Below the pieces are notes generated by a model. It did not search any database and was not told where the DNA came from. It saw only the letters and a program-made list of their open reading frames with translations. 64,000 bases of DNA from Chiloscyllium plagiosum (Eukaryota), in contig NC_057755.1 in NCBI RefSeq assembly GCF_004010195.1, forward strand, positions 11,187,928-11,251,927. The letters are read 5' to 3'. A program made the translations under genes and the position numbers. Shown here piece after piece: positions 7,996-49,351 of this stretch (position 1 is the stretch's first letter; the number at the start of each line of letters is the position of its first letter).

Positions 7996-8075
7996 CACCT
8001 CTCCTATTCCCAGCGCCCCTCCCTCAAATTCCGTTCCACTACCTTTTATCTCAGCCCACTTGGCACACCAGCCTC

Positions 8076-8112
8076 ATTCCTGAAGAAGGGCTTATGCCCG
8101 AAACATCGATTC
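8076..8112 (+). ncRNA. Hammerhead ribozyme motif, slightly decayed
   Basis: auuc CUGAAGA A GGGC UUAU GCCC GAAAC AUC gauu. G>A at the CpG of ACGU breaks the helix III palindrome. Confidence 0.55.
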
Positions 8113-18940: not shown

Positions 18941-19007
18941 ATGCAGGAAATATTTAAAATCGTCGACAAAATATTCTACTTGATTCTTGCGGTTGTCGGT
19001 GTGCCTG
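18941..19007 (+). CDS. Exon 1 of GPR139/142-like orphan GPCR (gene A): MQEIFKIVDKIFYLILAVVGVP plus 1 nt
   Basis: ATG in AAAATG context with an in-frame upstream TAA (18926-18928). Encodes a hydrophobic first half of TM1 and ends at a G|GTGAGT phase-1 donor. Splices in frame to 25090, giving VP-V-NVLAIVIL. Too short to appear in the ORF track. Confidence 0.85.
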
Positions 19008-19374
19008 GTGAGTAATTATAACCACTGGAGTTGTGGGAGGGAGCTGTTTCTGTTCGATGGCTGGTCAATATTTTATCCCCATGTTCTGGTCACCAATATC
19101 TAAATACCTGATCAACGTTATCATCAAGTCAAAAGTTTTCAATTAGCTTGGCAGTTTTGTTTTATTTTCTCAAATAAGAATCAAAGGAAAAAAAACTGAA
19201 ATTTACAGCTGACCTTATAGAGACCTCACTATTTGAGTTACTGACTGCTGGGAGTGGTGGGATTTCTTTGAATAGCTCAGTGTTTAAGATTTATAAAATT
19301 TATAAATCTTGATTTTTTTTTTGGAAATCGATAAAAGTGAGTAGAGTGACGGTTTTAAAAATGTTATAATGAGA

Positions 19375-20205
19375 TCTGTCATAAATTCATAGAGCACTGA
19401 AACAGGCCCTTCAGTCCATCTCGTTCATGCCAATCAGATTTCCTAAACTAAACCTGTCCAATTTGCCAGCATTTTGCACGTATCCCTGAAAAACCTTCCT
19501 ATTCATATACCATCCAGATGCGTTTTAAATGCTATAACTGTACCAGACTCCAACACTTCCTCTGGCAACTCATTCCATACATGCACCACACTCTGCAATC
19601 AAATGTTCTCCCTTTTTCACTTTTAAATCTTTCGCCCCTCACCTGAAAGCGATGCCCTGTAGTTCTGGACTACTCCATCTTGGAAAAAAAAAGACCTATC
19701 TGTTTATCCTGTCCATGCCCCTCATGATTTTTTAAACCTCTTTAAAATCACCTCTCATCCTCCGACGCTCCAGGGAAAGCGGTCCCAGCTTATTCAACCT
19801 CTTCCTATATGTCAAAACCTCCATCCCTGGCAACATCTTTGTCAATCTTTATTGAATGCTTCTCGTTTCACAACATCCTTCTGAAGGAGACGAGAGTTGC
19901 ATGCAATATTCCAACAGTGGCCTAACTAATGTTGTGTACAGCCACAACATGACCTCCCAACTCCTATACTCAATGCTTGGACCAATAAAGGTAAGCATAC
20001 CAAACACTTTCTTCGCTGTCCTATCTACCCGTGACTCTACTTTCAGGGACACATGAAACTGCACCCTAGTGTCTCTTTATTCCGTAATACTCACCAGGAA
20101 CTGACCATTAAGTTTATACGCCGTATCCTGATTTGCCTTTCCAAAAATGAGCACCTCACGTTTACCTAAACTAAACTCCATCTGCCACTCCATGGCCCAT
20201 TGGTT
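19375..20205 (-). mobile_element. CR1-clade LINE 3' fragment in gene A intron
   Basis: LYTTLVRPLLEYCMQ motif and CR1 3' UTR. Confidence 0.85.
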
Positions 20206-20224
20206 CCCACTGGCTTAAATTACT

Positions 20225-23200
20225 TTACTACAAAATGTATGTATTAAGTTATTCTAGAGCAGTGTTTTCCGAATGGTAAGGCTGTGCTGATGTCTGGGTC
20301 TGTCGATTAAGGAGCTGAGATGTTCTTGAGTGAAGTGATGTGCTCTTCCTATCACACGTGGGAGATGAGCAAGAATCTCCATATTCCTGATGATTATACT
20401 GCAGGAATTGTCTATGGTTGGGAACCCTAACAGATCACATGGAAGGATTAGAGCAGCAGTTAAAAGCAGTGGGAAATTTACAGAAGGTCTGGAATGAGAT
20501 GGATAGCTGTTATAGGAAGGGAGAAAAACCATAGATAAAGTCAGATAATGGATTGCCTCCAGGAAAGTAGAAGAAGGAAGCAGTTAATGTAGAATCTTTT
20601 GTTGCCATTCCGATCTCAAACAAGGATGTTGTTTTGGAAAATATAGGGGCTGATGGACTCTCAAGGTAATGTAACATGAACCGCCAATTTTCTGGCACTG
20701 AGACTGGCTCTAATGTAACAATGTATATGTCAGGCTCCAATCAATCGATTGTGACAGGAGAATCTCTATTCAGAGGAACAAACAGACGGTTCTGCTGCTG
20801 ACAGTGAGAAATCAGAATGGTATGCTGCCTTCCTGGTATCATGATCAAGGATATCTCGGAGAGGATGCAGAATGTTCTCAAAGGGGAGAGGGACCAGCAG
20901 ATGGTCATTGAAAAGACTGGAACTAAAAAGGTAGGAAAAGAATGGGAGAGGATCTGAACAGCGAATATAGGAAACAAAACAGGAGGTTAGTAGTAACTGG
21001 ATTAATCCTGGTGCCGTGTGCTAGTGAGAGGAGGAATAGGAAGGGAGAACAGATGTATGTGTGACTGAGGGGTTGATACAGGGGACAGGAATTCACATTT
21101 CTGAATCATTGCAATCAATTCTGGAGTAGAAGGGAGCAGTATAAGAAGGATGGGGTGCACCTGAATTGGAAGGGTGTCAGTATCCTTGCAGGGAGTTGTG
21201 CTGATGCCACTGAAGAGGGTTTAAACAAGTCCGCAGGTGGGGTTGGTCCCAGGGAGGTAGTGAGAAAAGGGAGAAGTCATATCCATTCTGTCAGAGGTCT
21301 CATGACACCAGGTTATAGTCCAACAGGTTTATTTGAAATCACAAGCTTTCAGAGTGGTGCTTCTTTGTCAGGTGAAAGGTCAAGATTAATTTAGGATACC
21401 TGGTCTGCATGGACAAGTTGGATCAACAGATCTGTTTCTGTGCTGTACACCTCTACAACTGCAAATTGTCAAGGCAGTCAAGAGCAAGGCAGAGAACAAG
21501 GTCAGACTGATTAATTAAACTGCATTTATTTGAATTCAAGATGCCTGACAGGCAAGGCAGATGAACTCAGGGAATGGTTGGGAACATGGGGGTGGGATAT
21601 CACGCCAATTACAGAGACGTGGTTCAGGGATTGACTGGACTGAAAGCTTAATGTTCTCAGGGCAGAGATGTGAAAGGAAGGATAGAAAGTTGGAGGGGGG
21701 GGGGCGCAGAGAGGAGGGGCAGTGGCGTTTTAGGTTTGGGATAACATCATGGCTGTACTTAGGAAGGATAATCTTGGGGGGGTGTTATTTCAGTGGAACT
21801 GAGAAGTAAGCAAGTGATGATCGCATTGTTGTGATGTACTATAGAACCCTCCCCCAATAGTCAGAGGGAAATTGAGAAATGAATTTGTGAGGGTATTGCA
21901 GTTATCTGTAAGACTGATAGAGCTGTAATTTGAGGGGATTCTAACTTTACACAAGACAAGCACATAGATTGGGACTGTCAAGAGTTTGGATAGTGAGGAA
22001 TTTAAGTGAGAATGAGGAAATTTCCTCATTCAGTATGTGGATGCACTTTTTAGAGAAGGAGCAAACCTTGATGTACTCTTGGCCATAGCAAGCGATTGAA
22101 GTGACAGTGGAGCAGCATTTTGGAGCCAGTGATCATAACTTATGGAAAAGACCTTGTCGAAAAGTTGAAGTTCTAAATTGGAGGAGAGCCAATTTTGATG
22201 ATATTAGGCACGAACTTTCAAAAGTCTACTGGGAGAGGCTATTCCCAGGTAAAGACACGATTGGAAAGTGGGAGGGTTCAAAAATGAGATAATGATAGCC
22301 CCGGAGCACTATGTTCATATTAGTGTGAAGGGGAAAGCTGGGAATTGTGGATGGCTAGAGAAATTGGGGCTCCGGTCAGGAAAAAAAAAGATGACTTATG
22401 GCAGTTATAAATATTGAGATTGAGGAACTCCATCCAGGAGGCTGAGGGCAGTAGGAGTTCACACAAAAGGGAACTCAGGAAGGCAAAAGGGGGCCATGAG
22501 GTAGCTTTCGCAAATAGGGTTAAGGGGAATCAAAAGAGACAGTACAAATACACTAAGGGCAAAAGGTAACGAGGGAGAAAATCGGGATTACTTAAAGATC
22601 AAAAAGGCTGCCTATGTGTACAACCACAGGAGTTAGGTGAGATATAAACTGAGTATTTCCATTCAGTATTCATGGTGGAGAAGGATATGGAAGCTAGAGC
22701 ACTTGGAGAAATATGCAGTGAGATCTTGACAAGTGGGAGCAAGTAAGGACTGCAGATGCTGGAGATCAGAGTCAGGAGTGTGGTGCTGGAAAAGCACAGC
22801 AGGTCAGACAGCATCCAAGGAGCAGGAGAATCGACTTTTCAGGCATAAGGACGTGCTTGTCTTGATAATCTAAATATCTTGACAAGTGTCCATTTTACAG
22901 AGGTGGAGGTGCTGGATGTCTTAAAGCACATCAAGTTGGATAAATCGCCTAGACCTGATCAGATGTGCATGAGAACTCTGTGGGAAGCTAGGGAAGTGAT
23001 TGATGGGCTCTTTGCTGAGATAGTTGTATCATCGATAGTCACAGGTGAGTGCCGGAAGACTGGAGTTTGGCTAACATGGTGCTGTTATTTAAGAAATGGG
23101 GTAAGGAAAAGCCAGGGAACTATAGACGGGTGAGCATGCTGTCAATAGTGGTATGTTGTTGCAGAGGATTCAGATTGAGAGGATTTACATGCATTTGAAA

Positions 23201-23410
23201 AGACAAAGACTAATTAGGAATAATCAACAGCATGGGACATTGTGTCTCACTAACTTGATTGAGTTTTTTTGAAGAAATGCTAAAAAAGATTGATGAAAGC
23301 AGAGTGCTGAACATTGTCTCTACAGGCGTCAGCAATACGTTTCACGCGGTGGACTCGTTAGCAAGGTTAGGTCACATAGAATCCAGGTAGAGCTAGCCAT
23401 TTGGATACAC
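20225..23410 (+). mobile_element. Decayed CR1-clade LINE (ORF1 esterase-like, endonuclease, start of RT) in gene A intron
   Basis: CCLPG and DGVHLNWKG ORF1 remnants, GASDHN endonuclease motif and LDKSPRPD linker. Confidence 0.85.
22736..22875 (-). mobile_element. Short solo PLE-end insertion within CR1
   Basis: Homologous to the PLE ends at 6212 and 8100. Exact 13-bp TSD ATCTTGACAAGTG at 22723-22735 and 22876-22888. Confidence 0.8.
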
Positions 23411-23416
23411 CCAGTC

Positions 23417-23668
23417 TCACCGCTGTAACGCTGCATTTTCCATGGCTAACCCAACTAGCCTACATATCCGTGCAACACTATTGGGCAATTTAGCATGGCC
23501 AATCCACCTGACCTGCACATCCTTTGACTGTGGGAGGAACCAAGAGCTCCCAGAGGAAACCCACACAGATACAGGGAGAATGTGCAAACTCCACACAGAT
23601 AGTTGCCTGACGGTGGAGTTGAACCCAGGTCGATGGTACTGTGAGGCAGCAGTGCCAACCACTGAGCT
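23417..23668 (-). mobile_element. tRNA-derived V-SINE (HE1-like)
   Basis: Reverse complement of the 30201 element, with the V-domain-like TGTGTGGAGTTTGCACATTCTCCC. Confidence 0.85.
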
Positions 23669-24158
23669 ACTGTTCTGTATTTAATCTTACTAACTAGTCT
23701 ACCATGCATAACCTTGACAACGGCTTTCCTAAGTAAAAAGCATCTACTGCTCTGCCCTCATCAATCTTCTTGATTACTAGCTCAAAAGAAAACTCAGTCA
23801 AGTCTGTGAAATATGATTTCCCTCACATGAAATGCTGCCATATTGGATGTGCTCATGAGCAGTATTCAAAATGTAGATGATTTTATTAAGTATTTCGATG
23901 GACTCAAAGTAACACAGTTTTTAATTTGTATTTTAACTGTAATCTAAGAATAAAGTGTGTTTTCCTTAAGGCCTGATGGTTTGACCAATTGAGTCACATC
24001 TGGAACACAGCACCTCGTACTTACATTTACAACATAGAACATAGACCATTCCAGAGCAGTGCAGGCCCTTTGGCCCTCGATGTTGTGTCGACCTGTGAAA
24101 CCAATCTGAAGCCCATCTAACCAACATAATTCCATTTCCGTCCATAGGACTATCCAAT

Positions 24159-24465
24159 GGCATGGTGGTTTAGTGGTTATCACTGGTGCTTTTCAGCACC
24201 AGCGTCCCAGGTTCGATTCTTGCCTCAGGCAACTGTCTGTGTGGAGTTTGCACATTCTCCCCGTGTCAGCGTGGGTTTCCTCCGGGTACTCTGGTTTCCT
24301 CACACAATCCAACGATGTGCAGGTCAGGTGAATTGGTCATGCTAAATTGCCCATGGTGGTAGGTGGAGAGAAATGGGCATGGATGGGTGACTCTTTGGAG
24401 GGTCAGTGTGGACGAGTTGGGCTGAAGGGCCTGGTTCCACACTGTAGGGAATCTAATCTAAACTA
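24159..24465 (+). mobile_element. V-SINE (HE1-like) nested in a minus-strand CR1 3' fragment (about 24030-24920)
   Basis: A/B-box-like head (GGTTCGATTC), V-domain and CR1-like tail ending in AATCT repeats. Confidence 0.85.
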
Positions 24466-25089
24466 AATTACTTTAAAGCCGGTGACTCTATTACTGTATA
24501 TTCCCCTACTACTCTCTGAGTAAAGAAGCTACCTCTGTCATCTGTCCTATATCTATGACCCCTCAATTTAAAGCTATGTCCCCTTGGATTAAACATCGCT
24601 ATCTGAGGAAAAAGGCATTCATAGTCCACCCTATCTAGTGCTCTGATTATCTTCTATGTCTCAATTAAGTCACATCTCAACCTTCTTTTCTCCAATGAAG
24701 TCAGCCCCAATTCCCTCAGCTTTTCCTCATTTAGGCCTTCCCTCCATACAAGGCAACATTCGAGTAAATCTCCTCTAAAACCTTTCCAAAGCTTCCACAT
24801 ACTTCCCTAAATGCGGTGACCAGAACTGTACGCAATACTCTGAGTGCAACCACTCCAGAGCTTTGTACAACTGTAGCATGACCTCATGGTTTTAAACTCA
24901 ATCCCTCGACCAATAAACGTGAACACTCTCTACTAATAAAAAACTGAAATAAGAAAGAAGTTAGGGTCTTAGCAAGCTCCTTGATATATTTTGAGGAGGC
25001 TTGTTCTGGTCCATAATAATACAGACTGTGTTGGATGCACTGAATGTTCAATCATCAACTTCCAGACCTTTCCTTCTTTTCTCTTACAG

Positions 25090-26000
25090 TTAATGTATTG
25101 GCGATTGTGATTCTTTCCAAGGGAAAATGCGGCCTCTCCACATGCACCACTAATTACCTGGTGGCCATGGCAGCAGGGGATCTACTGGTCATTATCACTG
25201 AGGTCATCCTGAACCGGCTCAGGAATTATTACTTCCCACGATGCTTCTTGGATATCACCCCTGTGTGCAGTGTGATCAATGTCCTACTGTGTGCAGCCAC
25301 TGACTGCTCTGTCTGGTTCACTGTCATGTTCTCCTTTGACCGGTTTGTGGCTATTTGCTGCCAGACACTCAAAAGAACGTATTGCACGGAGAGAACGTCA
25401 ATTATGGTTCTAACAGTAACTGGTGCTCTGCTATTTTTGAGAAACATCCCCTTCTACTTTGCAATTGACCCTGGGGAGGTCATCAGCAACATGCCATGGT
25501 TCTGTTACCCAAAGCCAGGCTACTACAGTGAACCAGGTTGGAAAGGATTTGATTTATTCGATAAGATCTTGACCCCGTTGCTCCCGTTTGCTTTAATTCT
25601 GTTGCTTAATGCCCTGACAGTACACCATATTTTAGTGGCCAGTCGAGTCCGCAAAGGACTAAGGGGTCAGAGCAAGGGATCGAATCACAGAGACACAGAG
25701 ATGGAGAGCAGAAGGAAGTCGATGATTTTACTCTTCACCATATCTGGCAGCTTCATCCTTCTTTGGTTAGTGTATGTCATCGATTTTCTGTATTATAAGA
25801 TAACAGGAGAAAAACCAATGTATTATAATAATGTCCGAGTAGTTTTCCAACGGGTTGGGTATATGTTACAGACTTTAAGTTGCTGCACAAACACATTTAT
25901 TTATGGGGCAACTCAATCCAAGTTCAGAGAGCAGGTCAGGAACGCTGGGAAATATCCATTTGCTTTAATTACTCATTTCACTCAGAGAGGAAACAATTAA
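25090..26000 (+). CDS. Exon 2 (main 7TM exon) of GPR139/142-like orphan class A GPCR (gene A); spliced product 325 aa
   Basis: Polypyrimidine tract and TTACAG acceptor ending at 25089. Open frame with TM1 N, TM2 LVAMAAGDLL, TM3 CSVWFTVMFSFDRFVAICC, TM5 LLPFALILLLN, TM6 FILLW, TM7 SCCTNTFIY and helix 8 SKFREQ. Family assignment is by recalled similarity, not by search. Confidence 0.9.
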
Positions 26001-27004
26001 CTTCTTCCCGTTGTACCAGGCCTTGAGTGAAACTTTTCACTGAAATTCCCAACAGACATAGCAGTCCACCAGGAGGCAAGAGCTGACGGCTGGAGGATTG
26101 GCACTAATGGTGATGGGGCAGAGACAGAGAGCTGAGGACCAGAGGGGAAACAGCAGCCACAGTCTCCCATTCACCAGTTCCATTCTCGCCGCCTCATCTC
26201 TGCTCGTGGGGTTTACTTGAAAATACTTTGGCGAATTCCTCTCCCTTCGAGGAATCAGAGTAAATTCGAAGATCAGGAGTAGGCCATTCAGCCTCACAGT
26301 CCTGTTCTGCCATTCAACATGCTGATGGCTGATCATTGAGGTCAAGTCCATAAACCCCTCCTCTCCCATATCGCGATCTCCTTAGCCACAAAAGCTATAT
26401 CTAACTGCATTATAGACATAACAAATGTTGGGCCTTAACCACTTTCTCTGGGAATGAACTCCACCAGACAACTACTCTCTGGGTGAAGATGTGTCTCCTT
26501 ATCTCAGTCCTAAAGGATTTCCTCCTTATCCTTAAGCTATGACCCCTGGTTCTGGATTCCCCCACCATTGGTAACATCTTCCCTGCATCGAAGCCATTTT
26601 GCTCTGCCTGAATTTTGTGTTGTGTGATTATCTCCTTACTCTTCTAAACTCCAGTGAATACACTCCTAACTGACTCGACCTCACCTCTTGCTATATCAGG
26701 GATTAGTTTGGTAATCCTTTCCTGCACACCTTAGATGGCAGGAACATCCTCAGATAACGAGATCAAAACAGCACACAATATTCCTCTGGGCTGATGCTTC
26801 AACTGCCCTCACTCACTGTGTCTCAGACATACTTTAACACGTCTGGTGTGTGTTCCTCTCTGGACAAGGCCCATGTGGTTCTTATTTGGGTAAACCTCAT
26901 CCCAGGCAATGGTTTGTGGCCTGGCACAGCAACGAGGACACTATGATGAAACATTTGCTTGGTTAGAGCTGCTTAATTTTACATCCTGCTCCTCCAAACG
27001 TGGT

Positions 27005-27395
27005 CTCTCAATCTCTGACTCGCTCTGTCCCTCTCTTTCTCACTCGCTCTCTTTCTGTATATCTTTCTCCTTCTTTTTATTTTTATTCTATCTTTGTCCC
27101 TCTTTCTCTCTCTCTCTGGCTCTCTATCCCTCTTTCTCTGTCCCACACTGTCACTTTCTTTCTCCCTCTCCCTTCATCTCTGTCTCTCTTATGTCTGCCT
27201 CTGTCTCTCTCTCTCTCTGTCTGTACGTCATGATGTCTCACTCTCTCTGTCCCTTTCTGTTTCTCTCTTTCTGTCTTTCCATTACTCTCTGACTTTCTTT
27301 CTCTCTCTTTCCCTGTCTCTCTTTCTCTCTGTCTCTATCTCTCTCTCTGGCGTTGTGAGTGTCTCTCTCTCTCTATCTATCTGTGTGTGTGTGTG
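27005..27395 (+). repeat. CT-rich low-complexity tract followed by (GT)n
   Basis: Direct inspection. Confidence 0.9.
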
Positions 27396-28944
27396 GTCTG
27401 GCCAACCTTTGAATGTGTTGCGATTTTCTCAAACTGTGTCCCTGTTCCCTTCTCTCTGTTTCATGGTTTGGAGTTCAATATTGTTTCACAATGCTCCTGC
27501 AAATTGCTTTCAGTTGATTCGATGTGGAAAATAAAAATTAAAACTGTTGTTGCTAATTCTGCCGCAGTTTCCATCATACTGTCTTTGTGTCTTTCTGAGT
27601 GTTTCTTTCTTAACTGAGTTCAAAATCTGATATCTCTTCCTAACAATGAACAAAACTTCAACATTAAATGCTATGGGCAAATTCTGACAGCTAAATCTAA
27701 CCCAAATGTCACCAATCCTACTGAACCTTACTCCTCCCACTATTACATTATTAACCTTCACCCTATAGTGAGAAAAATAGGCTTTTAGACAAATTCCAAA
27801 CCTGAATATGTTCCTAATCCTAATCTAAACTCTAAATCTATTTACTTATTAACTTGATAAAAGTTGGACCAGTGCCCTAACATTAAGCCTAAATGTAAAA
27901 CTGAACCCAGCACGAACCCTGATGCTAAATTTCTAAATTCAAACAGCAAAAAATGCTAATTCTAGTCCTAAACTCAGCCTTAAATAACCCAAAGGCCGAC
28001 TATAATCTTAACTTTAAAATTAAAGTGAATTGGAAATCTCAGCATGACAAAATTCTGTGTCCCTCATCGTAACACAACTCACACCATGGCAAAAACGTGA
28101 ACAATACTTCAAACTCTTACCCTAGCATTGAATCTAACCCAAACTTCAAAGTTAATCTCCAATTGATTGAAAGTCCCAGTGGCATTCTAGCTTGCATTGA
28201 AATGAATGTGGGGCATGAGCTGACCCGGAAGCTGACCATCCAGCTGCTGTGAAGTGACCGCCTCACTTGTCACATGATGCTGACCAGGTGGACCTGTGTG
28301 ACCCCAAGGTCATCTCGATGTCAACTACAACTATAGGGAACGGGCAGGTAAATGGGTGTGAAGGAAGGACATTATTTACAGAGATGGACTGGAGAAGGTA
28401 CTTTTAATTCTCTGGGTGGAGTGAGTTTCGAGAGGAAATTTGATGTAGATGTTGAAATTGATAAGAGGTATGAGACTGGGGGAGTGGAGATACTTGCTCC
28501 CATTGGTGGAGTGATCAAACACCAGAGGACCCAGCTTGAAGGTAGTTGAAGAGGGAATCAACAACGAAATGATGACAATCTAATTTTCCGCTTTGAATGG
28601 TTAGTGTCTGAAATACAACACCTGTCAATGAGCTGCACCGAGATTCATTCATGTAGTTTGAAATGAAATAATCGAGCGTTTGAAACGATAATATCTGAAC
28701 TGAAACTTTGAAACAATGAGATGTGGCTGGATTGTTAATCCCAGGTAATGTTCCTAGATTCCGGGTTCAAATCCTGCCATAATGGTATTGGAATTCAATT
28801 TTTAAAATCTGGAATAAAGACTCTGACGATGACCATGAATCCATTGTCAATTCTCGGAAAACCCATCTTTGAATGCAGAGCCACAGCATGTGAATGCCAA
28901 TTAACTGCCCTCTGGATAATTAGGGTTGGACAATATATGCTGAC

Positions 28945-29480
28945 CTGGCAATTTTGGGTCCACTGTCTCAGGGAGGATGTGTTGGCTCTGGAGCGTGTTC
29001 AGAGGAGGTTAACCGGAATGGTCCCAGGAATGAAAAGCTTAACAAATGAGGAATGTTTTATGGCTCTGGGTTTATCCTCGATAGAGGTTAGAAGGATGAG
29101 ATTGGATCTGATTGAAACATACAGACTACTGAATAGTCTGGACAGAGTGGACGTTGGAAGATGTATCCACTAATAGGAGAGTTTTGGACCCGAGGGTAGA
29201 GCTTTAGAGTAAAGGGAAGATCTTTTAGAACGGAGATGAGGAGAAAGTTTTTCAATCAGAGAGTGATAAATCGGTAGAATTCATTGCCAGAGAGGGGTGT
29301 GGAGGCCAGTTCATTGAATATATTTAAAACGGAAATAGATAGGTTCCTGACTGTCACGGGGATGTAAGGATGCAAGGGAAGAAGCAGGAGAATGGGGTTG
29401 AGAAAAATATCAGCCATGATTGAATGGTGGAGCAGACTCGAGGGGCTGAATTGCCTAATTACTTCTCTTATTGTCTTCTG
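28945..29480 (+). mobile_element. CR1-clade LINE 3' fragment
   Basis: QFWVHCLREDVLALERVQRRLTGMVPG and DLIETY. Confidence 0.8.
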
Positions 29481-30200
29481 GTCTAAAGGCTGTAGTTGAA
29501 AAATCACCAGAGCTAACTGTCACCTGCCAAGAGATAACAGGTCTCAGTTTTTAGAGAAAGCACCATCCCTTTACCGCAGTATCTCAGCACTCCATCTAAA
29601 TTCCTGGCAGAAAGATCGACAGAGAAAACACTCCTGATTCAAAGATCAGTGCAGAAGAGACAGAACGTTCTGGAAGACACATAAACTAGCTATAATTTTG
29701 AGAGACTAAATTGTATTGATTTGAGATATAAGTGGGACTTGTATTTATTGGAACAGCATACCATTAGAATCGTGCATTCTTTCGGATAGTTAATACTTCG
29801 AGGGGAATTATTCAGTCTGGGTAAATAAATTGTTTCTTGTGGATTGTAACTCAGATTTTTTTTCGTTAAACATGAGAAGATTCTGAAAAAGATGGATTAC
29901 AACCCTCCACACACTCTTCTTAAGCTATAATAGCGTGAGGCACTCCCCTTTGGATGATTAGGTTTGAATTCTCGGGGGCTGGAGTATCAAGCTCCTCTTT
30001 GTAATACTTCCCCAACAGCACAGCAGCTCCAGGATTACGTCTTAAGCTGAGGAATTCAATAAAGCAGCGATCTGAATCCCGCCTGCCACCTCAGAGAGAA
30101 AACCAAGTGAAAACAGAATAAATTAACTAACTTTTAACCAGATCTTTCATCAACCCGCACACCTGATAAACTGGCAAAAATCTATGCCTTAATCTCTTGT

Positions 30201-30505
30201 GGGTGGCACAGTGGTTAGCACTGCTGCCTCACAGCACCAGAGACCTGGGTTCAATTCCCGCCTCAGGCGATTGTCTGTGTGGAGTTTGCACATTCTCCCC
30301 GTGTCTGTGTGGGTTTCCTCCGGGTGCTCTGGTTTCCTCCCACAGTTCAACAATATGCAGAATTGGCCACGCTAAATTGCCCGTAGTGTTAGGTGATGGT
30401 GTAAATGTAGAGGAATGAGTCTGGGTGGGTTGCTCTTTGGAGGGTTGGTGTGGACTTGTGGGGCCGAAGAACCTGTTTCCACACTGTAAGTAATCTAATC
30501 TAATC
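30201..30505 (+). mobile_element. tRNA-derived V-SINE (HE1-like), near full length
   Basis: GGCACAGTGG and GGTTCAATTCC pol III box-like motifs, V-domain and (TAATC)n tail. Family name is from recall. Confidence 0.88.
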
Positions 30506-38374: not shown

Positions 38375-39425
38375 CTGCCTTCTTGAACCAGTGAACTATG
38401 TCAATGGAAAACTGATGATAGATGGAGTTAAATAGAAGAGAGTGTGAGTTAATTCCTTTTGGACTGAGGAACGATAGATCAGCGACTTTCTCCATGTAGG
38501 AAAATAAATATAATGGCTGCACAAATAGGGTTTAAGCTTCAGGTGCACAGATCTTGAAAATGCCCCACGCAGGCACAGAAAATAACCCAGTACGTTAATA
38601 CAATGCTGGCCGTCATATCTAGAGGATTTCAGTACAAGAATGCAGGAGACATGCTGCAGTCATACAGGACCCTGGTTAGACTCCACTCAGATTACGTCAT
38701 ACTTGGGTGACCATACCTCAGGAATAATATGTTGGGGGGAGTGCAACATAGGTTTACATGAACCTTACCTGGACTTCAGAGCTTATGTCACGTGGATAGC
38801 TTATGCAAATTAGGAATGTTTTCTCTACAATTTAAAAGGTGAAAAGACAATCAGATCCAAATAATCAAGTATAAACAGGAAAAGATTGAGCAGGTAAGAA
38901 TAAATGATTCCCACTGACTGGGGATTCTAGAACAATAGAAGAGCCAGACAATTAGGGCCTGTGCATTCAGGACAGATGTTAGGAAGTGTTCCCACACACA
39001 AAGGATGGTACAGGTCGTTGTCGTGTAAAGTGACAGCTTGCGTTTCTCTGTGACCTCGCGCTGTAGAAAGTTGCGCTTTAGAAGATCACTATAGGAAATC
39101 TCTATGCCCGCTCAGCAGAAAGTTTGTGTTAGTCAAACAGCCTCCACAATTCGTCAATTGTGTTATAGCCAAATCGTGCTGATGAAACACGCGTTGCAGC
39201 AGAACGACCTGTAGACTTTTGGAACGCACATCCACAAACGGCTGTGGATACTACATCGGTTGTTAATTCTAAATCTGAGAAAGATAAATTTCATGGTAAA
39301 CAAAGGTATTTAGAGATATAGGCCAAGGTCAGGGATATGAAGGTAGGCCCCTGATCAGCAATGATCTCATTGAATAGCAATAGAAATTCGAGGGGCCAAA
39401 TGATCTCCTCGTGCTCCTATGTTCC
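38375..39425 (+). mobile_element. Old CR1-clade LINE 3' part hosting a MITE
   Basis: Degenerate LQSYRTLVRLHSDY motif. 3' UTR similar to 46590-47285. Confidence 0.7.
39011..39211. mobile_element. 201-bp MITE (Tc1/mariner-pogo/Tigger type)
   Basis: Terminal inverted repeats CAGGTCGTT...AACGACCTG with TA on both sides. Removing it restores the host CR1 sequence GGTA|GACTTTTGGAAC. Confidence 0.85.
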
Positions 39426-39713
39426 TAAGTCCCTGTACACCCATCAGACTATTGGAACGGGTGTAACACAATTTGGATCCAGGGTGAATGAGGGATTGGG
39501 GTTCTGAATGGACACATGGGTGAACAGATATACGATCTGATTGGCTGTTTAAACAGGATGGTCTATGTCAAAGACTGAGGATTGGGCTTGAGGAGAGAGA
39601 CCAGGGATAATTTACCTTCACTGCAGACAGATATGCTGCAAATTGTAACATCACTCAGAAGGTTATTGGTCCTGGAACAACACCAGAAACACGATTTGAG
39701 TGACTGGAACATG

Positions 39714-40578
39714 GTTGAAACTTTATTGCTGGAACAGCACAGCAGGTCAGGCAGCATCCAGGGAACAGGAGATTCGACGTTTCGGGCACAGGCCCTTCTT
39801 CAGGAATGAGCAGAGAGTGTTCAGCAGGAGAAGATAAAAGGTAGGGAGGAGAGACTTGGAGGAGGGGCGTTGGAAATGTGATAGGTGGAAAGAGGTCAAG
39901 GTGAGGGTGATAGGTCGGAGTAGGATGGAGGCGGAGAGGACAAGAAGAAGACTGCAGGACAGGAAGGCAGTGCCGGGCTGGAGGGATCCGGCTGAGACAA
40001 CTGCCTTGTCAGATCCACACCCCCCCACCGACCCAACCTCCACTCCCGGCACCTTCCCTTGCAACCACAGGAGGTGCAACACTTGCGCCCACACCTCCCC
40101 CCTCACTTCCCTCCAAGGCCCCAAAGGAAACTTCCATACCCGCCACAGATTCACCTGCACCTCCACCCACATCATCTACTGCATCCGCTGCAGCCGGTCT
40201 GGCCTCCTCTATATTGGGGAGACAGGCCGCCTACTTGCGGAGCGATTCAGAGAGCACCTCTGGGCCACCCGGACGAACCAACCCAACCAACATGTAGCAC
40301 AGCATTTCAACTCCCCCTCCCACTCCACCGAGGATATGCAGGTCATTGGACTCAACCACCGCCAAACCACAACAACCCGACGGTCGGAGGAGGAGCGTCT
40401 TATCTTCCGACTGGGAACCCTCCAACCAAAGGGGATGAACTTGGACTTCACCAGTTTCTTCATCCCCCCTCCCCCCACCTTGTCTCAGCCGGATCCCTCC
40501 AGCCCGGCACCGCCCTCCTGACCTGCAGTCTTCTTCTTGACCTCCCCGCCTCCACCCTACTCCGACCTATCACCCTCA
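39714..40578. mobile_element. Penelope-like element: inverted end plus GIY-YIG endonuclease domain
   Basis: Plus frame reads CNHRRCNTC...IIYCIRCSRSGLLYIGETGRLLAERFREH...EERLIFRLGTLQPKGMN. About 39901-39999 and 40480-40579 are inverted repeats. Confidence 0.92.
39772..39807 (-). ncRNA. Best-preserved minimal type I hammerhead ribozyme motif
   Basis: Minus strand reads AUUC CUGAAGA A GGGC CUGU GCCC GAAAC GUC GAAU. 4-bp stem I, 4-bp stem II, full core and loopless palindromic ACGU helix III. Confidence 0.8.
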
Positions 40579-42195
40579 CGAGAATGGGATGGCGTTTTTA
40601 CAGGGGGCAGGATGGGAGGAGGTGTAGTCCAGGTAGCTGTGGGAGTCGGTAGGTTTGTAGTAGATGTCTATGGTACTAGGGGCAGCAGTGTTAGGTTAAT
40701 GCAAACTGAGGGGAGATTGGAGGTGAGATACCAGAATGTCAGGGGTGGAGGGGAGAAGGTGGTTTCTATTTTGAAATGTTGTGTGATCCCTTTATATATC
40801 AATTCAGGAGACAGGAAGCGGAGGGGGCGGGGGGGAGGGTGTCCAGGGATCATTCAGGAATCCGTCAATATTCCAAAGTGAGTATATACAGATTTTTAGG
40901 GAGTGAAGGAGAGAGAGGGAGCAATTCCAGGAAGTGTCTCCGGTATAGAGATGGGTTCATGATCCTGCTGCAATAGGCTATCACGATTTCACACAGGAAG
41001 GATGCCAGTGTCTGCCGCATTGTCGCTTTGTTGGAAAACTTTATTTCCGGCTTTGTCGATGTAAGGAATTAGAATCAAATGGATAGAGAATGGAGGACGT
41101 AATACATCTTTTCCAAACATTATCCTTCCTAGGATACCATGACTGTCTTCTCCCCCCCCCCCCCCTCCCCAACTTCCTTTATGTCCGATACACCAAAGGG
41201 GTAGGGTATGGTGACTCAGTGTTAAGAGCGCTGGGTCAGCTATAGAGAGACCTCAAACCCACGCACATCCCACCATAGAATTTAAATACAATTCATGAAG
41301 AAAACCATTTGTAATTGCATTTTGGTCTCTGTCATGGTATCTGTCTACGTTTAATCCATTGTTGGGGGAGGACCTCTGGGTAATGTCCAATAGGGGGAGC
41401 TGATGGTCCAATTGCTGGGTAATGGGACCAGTGTGGGCACAGTGAATGTTCAGTGATGCACGCTCGATGGGCCAAAGGGCCTCCTCTGTACTATATGATT
41501 CCACTATGAGGGAAGGGACTGGTTTGGGTTTCTTTGACTGACAGATCCCTACGGGAACATAGGAACCCGGTAACACTCCACGGTCCTTCGGAAGAATCGA
41601 AAGTTACCAATATCTCTGTCCTTGCAGCAGTATGACACCCCATCCCACTGCATTTACTCATCGCCAATCATTCAGGATCACATCCTGGTCTCTTCATGGT
41701 CTCTCCTTTTAAAAAAAAATAAGGGATGCGAAGGTCCTGGGTTGACTCAGTAGTAATGGCCTACCCATCTGTTCAGAAAGTCAAGCACATTGATGCCAAC
41801 CTGGAGTCCTGGGTGGTCCTGATTGGAGAAAGATGGTAGAGCTCCTTCCCTGGACAACATCAGTGAACTGGATGGTTTTTATAACGATGGTTAAAAGGTC
41901 ACCATTACACCAACTTTTTCCTGCATCACTCCATCAGTTCTTTATCTCCAGACCTTGCATGTTCAATTCTCAAGCTCTTACCCACTATTCTTCGTCATGT
42001 GACTACTCCCCTTTCAATCAGGAATAGTTCCTGGCCGAAAGGAGAGGGCTGCACTCTAACCCTCACTGACAGTCCCTGGGCGTATCCAGGGATCCTAAGC
42101 CCTTCTCGTCTTAATTCAATATAGAGACGTGAAGGAGATATAAGATAAATCTAAGTTTCCCTTGTTGGTAAAATTGGGTTTTCTCTGGGTTGTTC

Positions 42196-42820
42196 CTAGT
42201 TCTCTTTAGTAACTAAGCATGTCAATAATGCGGATGGATATTTCAACGTGCTTTTGAAATGGTCTCTGAACTTGGACTGGGTCACTGTATAAATAATTTG
42301 TTTGTTGCAGCAACTTAACCCCACCAGCATAAGTCCAGCATGCCGGAAGCTTTGTACAGAACCACTGTAGTAGTTGAGATTTGTTCCTGCAATGTAATAA
42401 TGTATGAAGAATAGAACGAATACGAACTACTGGAGCATAAAGTTGCCGGATAAAGAGAAAAGTATAATCATTGACCTCCTTCTACTCTCCACTTCCGGGT
42501 CATTTTGATTCTGTCTTTGTTCTGATCCTTCAGCCCATTAGGGACACGACTGGCCACTAAAATACATCTGACTGTCAGAGTGTTGAAAAACAGAATTAAA
42601 CAAATGGGCGCAATGGGGTAAAGCTGCCTCAAACAAGTCAAATCCTTTCCAAGCAGGTTCAGTACAATGACTTAATCACACAGAACCATGATACATGGTT
42701 GATTATTTTTACAGGTTCAAATGTCACATAGAAAGGGATATTCTTGATGCAGAGCTGCAAACAAGTCATTGACAGAGTCAGAGCAGCAGTTTTCGCTGTG
42801 CAGTATTTTGCTTTGAGCTT
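42196..42820 (-). pseudogene. Pseudogene of the same GPR139/142-like family (gene B), ICL2 to C-terminus only
   Basis: Manual minus-strand translation gives KLKAKYCTAKTAA, KNIPFY, WFC, EPAWKGFDLF, LILFFNTLTV, ESRRRSMIILFSLSGNF and TQSKFRD. Several frameshifts, and TAG at the TM6 Trp. Homology stops above about 42820. Confidence 0.88.
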
Positions 42821-43289
42821 TTACTTAAGGCAAAGATGTATTATTATTTAAGTGATTTATACTGTAAGTAAACCATAGCAGTGATGTGCACACCTTCTGA
42901 ATTATGTTTTTATTGCTTAATGTTTGTTTTTACATTGATTATGCAGACCTCTTACGTATCTAGAATATTTGATCAACTCCTGGTCTCATAACCGTTGGCG
43001 AATCATGGTCTTTATGAAGGCTGTACATTTCTGACTACATCGATTTCACAGTGACCTGATTGAACCCATACCTCTCACAACGTCCCCTACAATGAGTGAT
43101 CAGAGCCTTCACCTGTGATCCAATCCATTCTGGGGATCGGAGCAATGGAAGAGATCATCAGGGATCAAACCAAGTTTGGGATTTAGGGACAATAAGGACT
43201 CCTGTATTTGTATTTCTTCCTGCATTTGTTGTTCCTCGAATATCATCCCGCACCCAAACACATACAACATTTCATCTTATATCATAAAC

Positions 43290-43420
43290 AATTCCTGATG
43301 AAGGGCTTTTACCAGAAATGTCGATTCCCCTGCTCCTTGATGCTGCCTCACCTGCTGTGCTTTCCCAGCACCACACTCACGACTCTGATCTCCAGCATCT
43401 GCAGCCCTCACTTTCTCCAT
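43290..43420 (+). mobile_element. Solo PLE-end fragment with decayed hammerhead motif
   Basis: ATTCCTGATGAAGGGCTTTTACCAGAAATGTC followed by the conserved TGCTGCCT...CCAGCATCTGCAG tail. Confidence 0.75.
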
Positions 43421-43539
43421 ATGGGCCAAGGGTTGGGAAATGGATTATAACAGTTCGGTGGTTGTTTTTGGCCGGCACAACCTCAATGGGCAGAATAGTC
43501 ATTTTCCATCTAAACCTAAATGCCAGTGCCCAGTTCACT

Positions 43540-44610
43540 GGATACAAATACACATTTTCAGGTGACGGTAGACCCGACCCCACAACGACTAAACATAATC
43601 TCATCCTTTCTAAGAGGATTTTAAAAATCTGGAGAATTAGACAGGGCAGACTTCCAAAATATGAAACCAGATGGATCCAACACACCACGCTTCTGTGGTT
43701 CTATGGATAACCAAAATTACACAAACCTGGCGACCCTCTCAGATCCATAGTCTCTCTACTTGGTACACCAGCATACAGACTAGCCAAGGAATTCTACCAG
43801 AAATTAAAACAGCTAATTGAAAATTCACTCCACCCAAGATTTCATGAACCCCAAGACACCAAGATAGAAGAAGATGTTTCCTTTACATCAATGGTCTCCT
43901 TTGATGTTACAGCCTTTTTTACATCGACCTGGCCAAAGAAATACTGGCCTCACTGCTCGGATAACCAAGGCTACAAACACCAGACAGCACAAACTTCATC
44001 AGCAAAGATAACATCCTCAAGCTAGTGAACCTGTGCCTCACCAGCCATTTCACATTCAATAGCAAGATGTACAAACAAGTCAGCGGAACACCCATGGGAT
44101 CACCAATATCAGGGCTCACAGTGGAAAAAAAAGTAATGCAGAGACTTGAACAAGCTGCCCTCCCATCCATCCAACCCAAATTTTGGGCCCACTTTGTGAT
44201 GACACCTTTGTCGTCACGAAACGGAACAAAATAAAGGAAACATGCAACACCGTCAACAATATCCTGACCAGCATGAAATTCACAAAAGAGGAGGAGAGCA
44301 ACAACAGACTCCCATTCCTAGACATGACTGTTGAATGTACATATAATGGAGAGCTTCGAACCAGCATCTAAGAGAAAATAAAGCAAACACAGACCAAATA
44401 CTTAACTCCAGTAGCAATCATCCCAACACCCACAAACCGAGCTGCATCAAGGCATTATTTCTACGAAGTACATCACACTGCAGGACCCAAGAACTACAAA
44501 CAGCAGAAGCAAAACATCTATACAACCTTTTCAAGAAAAACGGGTACCCAATAAACACAATCTGCCGATTCCACAGAAACAACTCAAACAAGCAGCCAAA
44601 ACACAACCAA
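43540..44610 (+). mobile_element. Decayed Penelope-like reverse transcriptase region
   Basis: FYG*PKLHKP, MVSFDVTA, YKQVSGTPMGSPISG, DDTFV and LPFLD motifs across frameshifts. Confidence 0.9.
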
Positions 44611-45164
44611 AAAAACTATTTGGTTGCCCCTATTTGGTACGAAACGTTTGCCCCTCAGGACTCTTTTAGATCTTTCCCCTCTCACCTTAAACCTACGCCC
44701 TCTAGGTTTGAAACCTTTACCCTAAGGAAAAGACCTTGTCTGTTTATCCTATCCATGACCCTCATGATTTAAAAGGTGATCTATAAGGTCACCCCTCAGC
44801 CTCTGATGATTGAGGGAAAAACATCCCAGCCTATTCAATCTCTCACTAGAACTGAAACTTCCAGCCCCAATAACAGACTTGGTTGGTTAGGGGATCAATT
44901 GTTATGGAGACAGGCAGAAGAATGGGGCTGAGGGACATTTCAGCCATGCTCAAATGACAGAGCAGTCTCGATGGGGGCTGAATGGCCTCATTTGCTCCTG
45001 TATGTTATGGTGTTTTGGATTTTTCATGGTGTGTTAATGTTTTAGCATATATCAGATATTGTGTTCTTCCATCAATTTCATTATTAACTGTACTCTCTGC
45101 CTCAGACAGACTCACACACATCAGACCCATCTGCACACCGCACATTTTTTTCTGTGAGAACACA

Positions 45165-45810
45165 ATGTCATAGAGTCATAGAGATGTACAGCACAGAAAC
45201 AGACCCTTCGGTACAACTTGTCCATGCCAACCAGATAGCCAACCTAATCTGGACCCACCTGCCAGCACCCGGTCCATACCCTTCCAAACCTTTCCTATTC
45301 AAATGCCCAGGCAGATGCCTTTTAAATGTTGCAATCGTACTAGTCTCCATCACCTCCTCTAGCAGCTCAGTCTATATATGTCACACCCTCCGCGTGAAAA
45401 CGTTTATATCTTTCCCCTCTCACCCTAAACTTATGCCCTCTAGTTCTGGACTCCCCGACCCCAGGGAAAATACTTTGCCTATTTATTCTATCCATGCCCC
45501 TCATGATTTTATAAACCTCTATAATGTCCCCCCGCCCCCCCCCTCGTCTCCAACCCACCAGGGAAAACAGCCCCAGCCTGTTCAACCTCTCCCTGCAACT
45601 GAAATCCTCCAACCCTGGCAACGTTCTTGTAAATCTTTTCTGAACTCTTTCAAGTTTCACAACACTATTCCAATAGAAAGGAGACCCGAATTGCACCTAG
45701 TATTCCAACAGTGGCCTAACCAATGCCCTGTACAGCCACAACATGACCTCCCAACTCCTGTACTCAATACTCTGACCAATGAATGAAAACATACCAAACG
45801 CCTTCTTCAC
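45165..45810 (-). mobile_element. CR1-clade LINE 3' fragment
   Basis: LERVQKRFTRTLPG and RGDIIEVYKIM, with CTATGA-like tail. Confidence 0.88.
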
Positions 45811-47384
45811 TTGACTTGAAACATTTATCGTTGCAATTATCCTAATCTGCTTTCCTTCTCCATAGCTTTCCAGGAGGAGATTGCTTTGTTTAAAATCAAC
45901 ATGAGTCTATTTGAATAAAATGCATTATCTGCGATTGCCCCAGTGCTGATTCCAACCAATAATATAGTTTAAGTCAATTCAAACTCCCACCCCCATGCCG
46001 AAACTCAACCTGATGCAATGCCTCAAACTGACAGAACAAGATCTCTCAAAACAGGTCGGGCCTTCTATGAATGCAGCACTTTCAGCAGAACCCATAAGGG
46101 CCATTCGGCCCATTGAGTCTGATCTGTCATTCGATCATGGCTGATAGGTTTTACAACACCATTCTCCTGCTTTCTCCCCATAACATTTAATCCCCTTGGC
46201 AATCAAGGGCCTATCTGTCTCTGTCTTAAGTGTACTAAATGACCTAACCTCCACAGCCCTCTGTGGCAAAGAATTCCATCGATTCCCCACTCTCTGGCTG
46301 GAGAAGGTTCTCCTTATCCCCGTTTTAAAGGGTCTTCCCTTTACTCTAAGGCTGTGCCCTCACGTCCTCGTCTCTCTTGCCAAGGGAAACATCTTCATAA
46401 TATCCACTCTGTCCAGGTCATTCAGTATTTTGCGAGTTTCAATTACATTCCCCCCACCCCATTTTTCTAAATTCCAGATCCACAGTTCTCAAATATTCCT
46501 CACATGTTAAACCTTTAATCCCTGGGACCATTCTCGTTCAGAAATACTCCAACTGAGAAAGGATGGATCAGAGTACTTTCTCGATGATAAGAGTTTAAAT
46601 ACAGTGAATGTTCAAAGAGATTTGGTCATTCAAGTGCATGGATCAGTACAATGTCAGGAAATAATCAAGGGAGTTCCTGGAAATCTGGCCTTTATAACTG
46701 GAGAACTAGAGTACAAGGATGTGGAAATTATGCTGCAGTTATACAAAACCCTGCTTAGGCCCACTTGGAGGCTGTGAGGAGATATGGGCATAGATCGGTA
46801 TTGGAGGGAATGCAATGAAGGTTTCCAAGAATGATACTGAGATGTTAAAGAGGGGAGATTATGCAAATTATGTCTGCTTTCTCTATAACTTAGAAGGTTG
46901 AGGGGTGGTCAGATCAAAATATTCAAGATATTGACAGGAAAAGATGGGAGAGATAAAGATTCCCACTGTTTGGAGATTCTCGATGGAGAGGGAGCAGAGT
47001 CTGAGAATGAGGGCCCAGAGAGTTCAGAAGAGATGTTAGGAAGCACTGTGACACACAGAGGAAGAGAGAGGTTTGGAACTCTCTTCTATAAATGCCAATG
47101 GATACAGGGTTAGTTGTTAATTTTACATCTCAGGTAGATGTAAATAGTTTTTTTGCTCAGAAAAAAGTATGAAAGGCATTGTATCAAAGGAAGGCATATG
47201 GATTCAGGCCATAGATCAGACATGTTCACGATTAATGATTGAAAAGGCTTGAGGGGCAGAATGGTCTCCTCCTGTTCCTCATTCCATTGAGACTACTTAT
47301 GGTCTTCGAAGCCTCAGTTTAATTTTGTTTCATAATGATTTATCTACAAAGTAAGAGGAACAGAAAACAAGAGAAGTGTGGATG

Positions 47385-48110
47385 TTGTACACTGGAAATT
47401 GCTGGAAAAGCTCAGCAGGTCGAGCAACATGCGTTCAGAGAAATCAGAGTTAATATCTCGGGCCCAGTAACCCTTCCTCAGTACTGATAGTAACTGGGGA
47501 AATGCCAGTTTATATGCAGAAAATAGGGTGGGGCGAGGGGTTAAAGAATAAATGATAGATGGGGATAGACCCCAAAGAGAGAAGGGCAGTTGGTTAGAAA
47601 AAGGAGCTGGTAATGAGCTGCCTTGGAGGGAGAACAGCTGTTAATGAAGACTGCCAGTGTCAAGCAATAGGTCATGTGTAATAGCAGACTACATGATAAC
47701 GAGGCCTTTTGTGTATGGTAGGGGGATAGGGCATGGGAGAGTACAAACCCTCAAATTATCGAACTCAGTATTGAGTCCAGAGGGCTGCAGGGTCCCCAAA
47801 TGGAAAATGAGGTGCTGTTCTTCCAGCACGCACTGAGCTTTGCTGGAACACTGCAGCAAACCTGAGACAGAAATGTTGGCCAGGGAATAGGGTGGTGGGT
47901 GAGAGTGGCAGGCAACTGGAAGCTCAGGTCCTTTTTTGCAGGCAGAACGTAGGTGGTCTGTGAAGTGATCACCTAGTCTCTGCTTCATTTCCCCCATGTA
48001 CAGGAGATCACACTGTAGAATGCGGTAGACTAGATTGTGGTAAGTGCAGGTCAATCAAAGCTTCACCTCAAAGGTGAGGAGGGAGGAGGCAAATGTGTTT
48101 GTGGGAGAAG
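47385..48110 (-). mobile_element. Old Penelope-like 3' fragment (GIY-YIG and end) just downstream of GPCR gene C
   Basis: NLVYRILQCDLLYMGEMKQRLGDHFTDH and EEQHLIFHLGTLQPSGLN. Confidence 0.85.
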
Positions 48111-48425
48111 GTGCCGTGGGGCTGTGGGGGATGGTGGCGTTGGGAGTGAAAGGAAGAGTAGATCAGATTGTCCCAGAAGGAACAATCCCTGTAGGAGCTT
48201 CAGGGCAAGCCAACTGTGCCTCAGCCTTCCGAGTCAGTCACAGCTCTTCAGAGTTTCAACCGCTACATTCCTTCCTCCCACTCTCACTTTGACCCAGGTA
48301 TTGTCTCATTGCACTTATAAACTGACATTGAAAGGCCTAATCTCCTGTATTGGTCTCGTATATAGATGCCCTTCCATTAACATGCCCCAAACATTGCTGA
48401 AACGAATCAGTTGGTACAATTTAAT

Positions 48426-49351
48426 TTATGAACAGGAGGCACAAGGTTTACATCTCTGGCTTCCCCATCGGGGTTTATCTCGATGATATCTCAGTGCAGC
48501 CTTGAGCTGCTCTCTGAACTTGGACTGGGTCATCCCATATATAAATGTGTTAGTGCAGCAACTTACATTCACCAACATGACTCCGACTTGTTGGAATAAG
48601 ATTGAGGAATGATTGTCAGCTTTAGAATCTGATCTAGGAATTATGTTAGAAATGAAGTTTATCACATATATCAACCACAAAAGGAGAAAGTTGCCCGATA
48701 TGGCAAAGAGTAAAATCACAGATTTCCTCCTGCTCTCCATCTCTGGGTCTCTGCGATTCTCTCCCTTGCTCTGACTCCTCAGTGCCTTACGGACTTGGCT
48801 GGTCATTAAAATGTGTCTGACTGTCAGGGTGTTGAACAGAAGAATTAAAATGAAGGCAAAGAAAGGGGTTAAAGCTGTGTGAAACCACCTGAATCCCTTC
48901 CAAAGGGATTCAGTGTAATAACTTGACTTTGAAATACAGAGCCATGGTATATTGTCTACGATTACATAAGGCTTATATCGAAAGTAGAAGGGCACATGGA
49001 GTAAACAGAACAGAATACAGGTTGTTGCTAAAACAATAGCTGTATTTCTCTCTGTGCAATATTTAGTTTTTAGTTTCTGGCAACAAATGGCGATGAATCG
49101 ATCAAATGTGAAAGTGACAGTGAACCAAACAGAGCAGGATGTCGCTGCTACAGACAGGACATAGACTACACTGCACACTGGAGTGATATCCAAGAAGGAA
49201 AGTGGGAGATAATAATTGTTAATTTGCCTCAGTATGACCTCCGTGATAACGACCAGTAGGTCTGCTGTTGACATGGCCATCAGGAAACGAGTGATGCCCG
49301 TGGAGAGACCGCACTTTCCTCTGGACAAGATCACAATTGCCACAAGATTAA
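48426..49351 (-). CDS. Main 7TM exon of a paralogous GPR139/142-like GPCR (gene C); first exon not located
   Basis: Minus-strand acceptor TTTTTTCTCCCCTGCAG|TT AAT CTT at the same position and phase as gene A. Uninterrupted frame with ADLL, FTFDRFIAICC, MESRRKS and SCCTNTFIYGMTQSKFREQ, clearly homologous to gene A. Confidence 0.85.

Follow-up and report, generated by a model that had tools for sequence, protein, structure and literature searches.

An apparently undescribed family of GPR139-related receptors with diversified predicted pockets in cartilaginous fishes, represented by two genes and a pseudogene of Chiloscyllium plagiosum

The best characterized relative of the genes considered here is GPR139, a sensor of L-Trp, L-Phe and tryptamine that signals mainly via Gq/11, is 70% identical between zebrafish and human, and binds Trp/Phe through six residues, E108, F109, H187, W241, R244, and N271 (PMC7318219). 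In bony fishes, three non-human sets of GPR139/142-related receptors have been described, including GPR210A and GPR210B, in a study whose main text leaves sharks unmentioned (Rinne et al. 2019, PMC6504862). In nematodes, the srw receptors arose by expansion from related receptors for neuropeptides and were proposed to be sensors of environmental peptides (Thomas and Robertson 2008, PMC2576165). Cartilaginous fishes are described as having G-protein-coupled receptors (GPCRs) in "relative paucity" (PMC8455134) and a mean of 43.8 (20-62) complete olfactory receptor genes, the smallest set of any vertebrate group (PMC10869828). Here, a stretch of 64,000 nucleotides from Chiloscyllium plagiosum (contig NC_057755.1, positions 11,187,928 to 11,251,927; hereafter the window) was analyzed, in which a sequence-only reading had reported three receptor paralogues at 18941-49351, two open and one a pseudogene, in mixed orientation. 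This arrangement was found as described, with copy A on the plus strand and copies C (the pseudogene) and B on the minus strand (Table 1); "open" applies to exon 2 only for copy B, because the window yielded no exon 1 for it. As class A (rhodopsin-like) GPCR genes, copies A and B belong to what is apparently a very large, undescribed receptor family of cartilaginous fishes, in which the predicted ligand pocket is hypervariable and the inner half of the receptor nearly invariant.

The gene structure of copy A consists of two coding exons separated by an intron inside the first transmembrane helix (TM1). The first exon comprises 22 codons and one base, coding for a short N-terminus and the first half of TM1, and the intron contains much repeat-like sequence. 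With splice sites read from the sequence, the predicted product is stop-free and 325 amino acids long, the modal length of intact family members among database models also being approximately 325 amino acids. A first-exon profile, built from those 43 of 56 relatives in which the junction motif was found, matched exon 1 of copy A at E = 3e-8, the next best match in the window having E >= 0.9. Pfam 7tm_1 was recognized in both copies (E = 3.9e-21 for A and 2.2e-21 for B), at 76 and 77 bits respectively, against a curated cut-off of 30.5. An AlphaFold model of the second exon of copy A (predicted local distance difference test score 87.9, predicted template-modeling (TM) score 0.84) showed a fold of seven helices together with helix 8, the second extracellular loop (ECL2) forming a beta-hairpin, and Foldseek matched this model to the GPR139 structure 7vug with a TM-score of about 0.70. 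Copy A is 86% identical to its counterpart in the whale shark (P0001), and copy B is 96% identical to protein P0302 of Chiloscyllium punctatum, whose model has a first exon of the family type.

The size and range of the family were obtained from searches in which candidates were clustered at 90% identity and only the best 120 matches per query were named. Copy A as the query recovered 2,202 of 3,148 candidate clusters at E <= 0.001, and copy B recovered 2,245 of 3,319 at E <= 1e-50. Since the best bony-vertebrate match among 150 listed representatives reached only E = 7.6e-28, the set at E <= 1e-50 very probably consists of family members throughout. The best 120 matches of each query all came from cartilaginous fishes. 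When 24 family representatives were looked up, 22 carried a chondrichthyan name and two carried no taxon; the named ones are from sharks, rays, skates, and a chimaera, Callorhinchus milii, to which two of them belong. These two chimaera proteins occupy separate regions of the tree, a single clade being marginally rejected (p-AU 0.048, for a group named after the first tree), which suggests that duplication within the family began before the split of chimaeras and sharks. Among the listed matches, the horn shark alone contributed 103 proteins, all full length, of which 101 stay below 95% mutual identity over the core, and 102 distinct strings were found at the 26 predicted pocket positions. This total sets a lower limit for a single species, with 101 or more distinct copies of full length. 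The lineage expansion with birth and death that had been proposed from the sequence is therefore borne out by these horn-shark copies and by pseudogene C, and the family is larger than had been guessed.

In gene catalogues, the copies are named "probable GPR139" or carry stray names. The labels "capa receptor-like", "cysteinyl leukotriene receptor 1-like" and "vasopressin V2 receptor-like" were considered and set aside as automatic names on members of the same family. Many database models of the family (among them P0001, P0002, P0004, P0129, P0148, and P0162) begin with a long N-terminus of foreign sequence or contain two stretches resembling a receptor, and are likely to contain mis-joined exons. 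No description of the expansion was found in the full-text papers searched, which leave out most subscription papers and some supplements that may mention the family. The available text of the whale-shark and zebra-shark genome papers and of the catshark chemoreceptor paper does not mention the family, and no GPR139/142 entry occurred in the 12 whale-shark supplementary files, of 24, that were searched.

Regarding the relation to GPR139, the human receptor (PDB 7vug and 9m42) was the best match in the PDB by sequence (E = 5e-11) and also by fold, and the family profile matched it at E = 2e-26, as the sole protein under 1e-22. The earlier description of the copies as GPR139/142-like thus holds insofar as GPR139 is the closest solved receptor; orthology, on the other hand, was ruled out by an identity of 24% in the structural alignment and by the divergent Trp/Phe pocket. 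At the positions of the six GPR139 residues listed above, copy A has L, C, D, W, Y, and Y, and copy B has S, V, H, W, Y, and V, so that A keeps one and B two of the six. An alignment of 231 full-length rows was used for this and for the following comparisons (229 of 357 collected proteins together with A and B, partial, outside, and <36% rows having been dropped). One of the six residues is kept in 179 of these rows, and none keeps more than three. Like GPR139 (PMC7318219), the family genes have two exons, and both groups have an NxxxY motif without P7.50, N at 5.58, and W6.48. The family departs from GPR139 in lacking P6.50, in its hundred or more copies against one, and in a longer ECL2 joined to the third helix (TM3) by a cysteine pair that is absent from the GPR139 alignment.

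The nearest outsiders come from amphibians, with 20 clusters whose representatives all belong to different species, and from sturgeon, with one protein; they were found among 25 matches of 1,675 candidates, and no amniote or teleost occurred among these 25 matches. In a tree of 36 rows chosen from 77, this lineage joins the family with support of 100/99, and proteins from coelacanth and silverside form a further branch. Tree and scores place the family as a separate paralogue lineage, sister to the amphibian/sturgeon gene. The sister proteins (P0234 and P0278-P0297; for example XP_069092602.1 of Pleurodeles and EOD39_13109 of Acipenser) are labeled "probable GPR139", to which they are only distantly related. 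They share with the family the ECL2 cysteine, N5.58, RRxS in the third intracellular loop (ICL3), and the missing P7.50, and those of amphibians share its very short N-terminus. They keep three of the six GPR139 pocket residues (F3.33, W6.48, and N7.39), and, unlike the family, they apparently are single-copy in each species, show no variation in the pocket, retain DRY and P6.50, and have S1.50 and N2.50. This gene is a good target for deorphaning and provides a way to approach the ancestral ligand. The coelacanth and silverside proteins belong to the same wider clade as the bony-fish GPR139/142-related orphans and share F3.51 and the lack of P6.50 and P7.50 with the family; they differ in having about 28% identity and a separate branch. 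In these proteins (P0245, P0249, and P0271), W6.48 and P6.50 are both missing and an ERF motif is present. The longer model P0271, from the coelacanth, has an insert right after the TM1 proline, suggesting an intron at the position of that in the shark genes.

The distribution of variation over the receptor is the result that carries the proposal of ligand diversification. Mean entropy in the 231 rows was 2.22 bits for the predicted pocket, 1.66 for other positions of the outer helix halves, and 0.68 for the inner halves (p = 0.004 and 7e-10), with the same order in 58 representatives less than 70% identical. The excess of the predicted pocket over neighboring outer positions was obtained at p = 0.002-0.004. 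In 20 amphibian orthologues this order was reversed, with 0.05 for the pocket, 0.46 for other outer positions, and 0.42 for inner positions. Identities at similar divergence tell the same story: horn-shark paralogues (3,910 pairs, 77% identical overall) are 50% identical in the pocket, 71% in other outer-helix positions, and 90% in the inner helices, whereas amphibian orthologues (79 pairs, 81% overall) are 98%, 81%, and 84% identical, respectively, the pairs not being independent in either set. Between A and B, the intracellular loops, which the sequence-only reading had called conserved, are identical at 8 of 9 positions in ICL1, 8 of 11 in ICL2, and 17 of 25 in ICL3, and the outer side, which it had called divergent, at 12 of 29 positions in ECL2, 1 of 11 in ECL3, and 10 of 26 in the predicted pocket. 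Nonsynonymous differences between A and B are more frequent on the outer than on the inner side (Fisher p = 3e-6), and the ratio of nonsynonymous to synonymous rates (dN/dS) was 0.30 overall, 0.20 in the inner helices, and 0.72 in ECL2. The overall value of 0.30 shows that both the A and B frames have been under purifying selection. The ligand-diversifying pattern that had been suspected thus reappears across the family as a strongly diversified predicted pocket. A scan of metagenomes for coding DNA of further paralogues yielded 243 pattern matches and 0 confirmed relatives.

With respect to charge, 179 of the 231 rows have a predicted pocket that is negative on balance. An acidic residue (D/E) is found at 3.37 in 208 rows and at 5.42, the site of H187 in GPR139, in 154. 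Copy B has S at 3.37 and H at 5.42 and therefore neither acidic residue. Asp5.42 is known as an amine contact in trace amine-associated receptors (TAARs) of teleosts (PMC4695389), and its presence in the family recalls the clade III TAARs described there.

The activation motifs quoted in the sequence-only reading (DRF, FILLWLVY/FLLLWLIY, and NTFIY, as well as the loop motifs GKCGLST and MESRRKS) are all in the sequence, and the picture of non-canonical motifs was upheld in one respect, the loss of the TM6 proline within the family; the remaining departures are mostly inherited or conservative. It can be observed that the switch residues are kept almost throughout the 231 rows: D2.50 in 230, R3.50 in 227, P5.50 in 221, F6.44 in 227, W6.48 in 228, N7.49 in 230, and Y7.53 in 229. 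The TM3 cysteine is present in 224 and the ECL2 cysteine in 222 rows. Human GPR139 has NFFLY, without P7.50, and N at 5.58 instead of Y5.58; because of this, the missing P7.50 and the N at 5.58, the latter found in 228 family rows, are read as inherited departures. F3.51, present in 207 rows and also in the coelacanth and silverside proteins, is a conservative change. GPR139 and all 20 of the 20 amphibian rows carry P6.50; in the family it occurs in 10 of 231 rows, most of which branch early, and on account of this distribution its loss is placed inside the family. An extra proline at 5.47 was gained, in 219 rows. As a whole, the activation switch looks maintained rather than broken. Conserved switch residues, together with the dN/dS of 0.30, rule out the reading of copy A as a pseudogene or as a receptor with broken activation machinery. 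The family can serve as a natural test case for how class A receptors are activated when the TM6 proline is missing.

Taken from these sequence patterns, it is very probable that the family is a ligand-diversified receptor repertoire in some role. As for that role, the balance tips only slightly towards copies A and B being part of a chemical-sensing repertoire, with varied pockets, one G-protein pathway, and expression in chemosensory cells. According to the process envisaged, an ancestral single gene, which stayed single and conserved in amphibians and sturgeon, would have been duplicated in cartilaginous fishes, probably before the chimaera-shark split. Ligand-facing residues would then have changed between copies while the cytoplasmic face was kept, each copy coming to bind small molecules or peptides of its own. 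Because the pocket varies while that face stays fixed, one transduction pathway may read many ligands, and by analogy with GPR139 it would be of the Gq/11 type. The acidic residues deep in the pocket of many copies (D/E at 3.37 and 5.42) suggest that one major class of ligands consists of amines, basic amino acids, or peptides of basic character; copy B, with S and H at these positions, would prefer other ligands. The expressing cells would most likely be chemosensory, in the nose, mouth, gill, skin, or gut. A stronger form, in which cartilaginous fishes possess a chemoreceptor family of their own, with hundreds of GPR139-related receptors, more than their V2Rs, few per cell, located in the nose, taste buds, skin, or gut, and tuned to amines, amino acids, or peptides, is put forward tentatively and falls somewhat short of an even chance.

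Several points weigh against a chemosensory repertoire. The residue numbers and the pocket list follow the generic class A convention, anchored on motifs and checked against the GPR139 alignment, and do not come from measurements in the model. Horn-shark proteins and matches near A and B are overrepresented in the family sample, and its gene models may include mis-joined or unexpressed copies. In the tree, support for monophyly of the family by itself is weak (81/55), and since GPR139 and GPR142 are not among its rows, placement relative to them rests on scores. Between A and B, a single and saturated pair of coding sequences, pocket dN over global dS is 0.63 and dN/dS in ECL3 is about 1.1, so that constraint at the variable sites may be relaxed. 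Finally, the olfactory neurons of the catshark are nearly all TRPC2/Go microvillous cells, as described in PMC10116579, fitting a V2R repertoire, and the 50 most specific genes of the catshark brain-plus-nose library given in PMC11979771 include no GPCR; a large family with low expression per gene would escape such a list.

The same variable pocket and fixed inner face would also fit an internal ligand-diversified repertoire comparable to the MRGPRs or the formyl-peptide receptors (FPRs), which would serve immune cells, mast-like cells, or nociceptors in sensing cationic peptides from microbes, parasites, or the host. A pocket that is net negative in 179 rows suits cationic peptides, the model has an ECL2 hairpin like that of peptide receptors with a conserved cysteine pair, and after GPR139 the structural neighbors are peptide receptors. 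Cartilaginous fishes are reported to have no MAS1-related receptors (PMC8455134), which leaves the niche free. However, the nearest studied relatives are amino-acid sensors. Moreover, a hundred or more copies per genome lie far above the sizes of the MRGPR and FPR families. An internal surveillance role is considered unlikely, while deserving of serious attention.

A different account dispenses with ligands altogether: copies would accumulate passively by repeat-driven segmental duplication of a receptor that is ligand-independent (constitutive, modulatory, or a partner of others), the pocket drifting while the signaling face is kept. The window is indeed full of retroelement debris, including the GIY-YIG fragment in Table 1, and contains pseudogene C. 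The A/B data give no demonstrated dN/dS above 1, P6.50 has been lost, and GPR139 itself is constitutively active and modulates other receptors in cells (PMC7318219). Simple drift, however, would not predict a pocket identity of 50% beside 71% at neighboring outer-helix positions, nor is it favored by the fixation of certain pocket sites (W6.48 and D/E3.37), the retention of more than 100 full-length copies in one genome, and a dN/dS of 0.30 between old paralogues; passive copying is thus judged improbable. A repertoire for reproduction or recognition (sperm guidance, mate or kin peptides, or neuronal identity codes), as opposed to the detection of food or danger, recalls the insect sex-peptide/MIP receptors in the wider clade (PMC8514136) and the testis enrichment of some V2R genes in the catshark (PMC11979771). 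It is the case to which we assign the lowest probability, and we regard it as quite improbable.

Returning to the chemosensory reading, the family is like the olfactory receptors, TAAR, V1R/ORA, V2R, T1R, and T2R in its clusters, pseudogenes, and variable pocket, and by sequence it belongs to none of them. If sensory, it would be a new class of vertebrate chemoreceptors beside these six known vertebrate families; if immune or nociceptive, it would be a shark counterpart of MRGPR/FPR surveillance. The small olfactory receptor set of cartilaginous fishes, 43.8 (20-62) genes, is exceeded by the 101 horn-shark copies counted here. That sharks have few olfactory receptors despite large olfactory organs is a puzzle, and more than 100 intact, pocket-diversified members in one shark make it testable; were a chemoreceptor family confirmed, the idea that about 40 receptors suffice for the good sense of smell of sharks would be overturned. 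It would also be a vertebrate repeat of the route taken by the nematode srw receptors from neuropeptide-type receptors. The srw family is likewise a large birth-and-death expansion, originating from myosuppressin/FMRFamide-type receptors, the invertebrate kin of GPR139/142 (PMC2576165). It differs in being an independent expansion with different motifs, whereas the family analyzed here is a vertebrate lineage. Srw-bearing clusters are among the Atlas neighbors of the family; Pfam 7TM_GPCR_Srw had no match in A or B at E <= 0.01, and a weak Srx match in B fell under the cut-off.

Within the window, the relations among the three copies were analyzed. Copies A and B are identical at 174 of 288 residues, with a dS of about 0.9, and the three copies have 63-67% DNA identity over their shared part. 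Together with the whale-shark counterpart of A, 86% identical to it, these values indicate that the three copies diverged from one another long ago. As an explanation, a recent tandem burst in the window was rejected: in the tree, A and B each pair with a copy from another species at 100/100, and forcing A and B together was rejected.

Exon 2 of copy B is preceded by a pyrimidine tract and an AG. Its exon 1 was not found in the window by tblastn, a splice-motif scan, the 43-sequence profile, or the N-terminus of the C. punctatum protein; it may be located past position 64000 or within the 500-N gap, or have been lost. The C-terminal tail of copy B (48426-48500) is unlike that of the family, with helix 8 followed by a Cys-rich end, and is common to P0302. 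Copy C was delimited by tblastn (E = 5e-34), the family profile, and DNA alignment. Compared with A and B, its frame is shifted by four deletions (of 5, 1, 1, and 1 nt), the W6.48 codon (42429-42427) is replaced by TAG, and no clear trace of its 5' half was seen in the window. The family profile revealed no fourth copy in the window (remaining matches iE >= 0.11), and no flanking gene was recognized among the 16 window open reading frames (ORFs) scanned.

Table 1. Coordinates of receptor copies and other features within the 64,000-nucleotide window.
Feature	Position	Strand	Description
Copy A coding exon 1	18941..19007	+	67 nt, ATG to GT donor
Copy A phase-1 GT-AG intron	19008..25089	+	6,082 nt; donor and acceptor read from sequence
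Copy A exon 2	25090..26000	+	rest of TM1 through stop codon
Copy C pseudogene fragment	42196..42820	-	approximately ICL2 to C-terminus
Copy B exon 2	48426..49351	-	open, 308 aa, after AG acceptor
Assembly gap	4782-5257		476 N
28-base unit array	6382-6656		10 copies
28-base unit array	7374-7995		22 copies
Assembly gap	9386-9808		423 N
33-base tandem array	11682-12143		14 copies
GIY-YIG endonuclease fragment	39925-40521		Pfam E = 7e-6
Assembly gap	56571-57070		500 N

Among the other features, the GIY-YIG endonuclease fragment probably derives from a Penelope-like element. The arrays of the 28-base unit yield long stop-free frames (ORFs 7304-8083 and 7371-8342), which represent a minisatellite and are no evidence of a gene.

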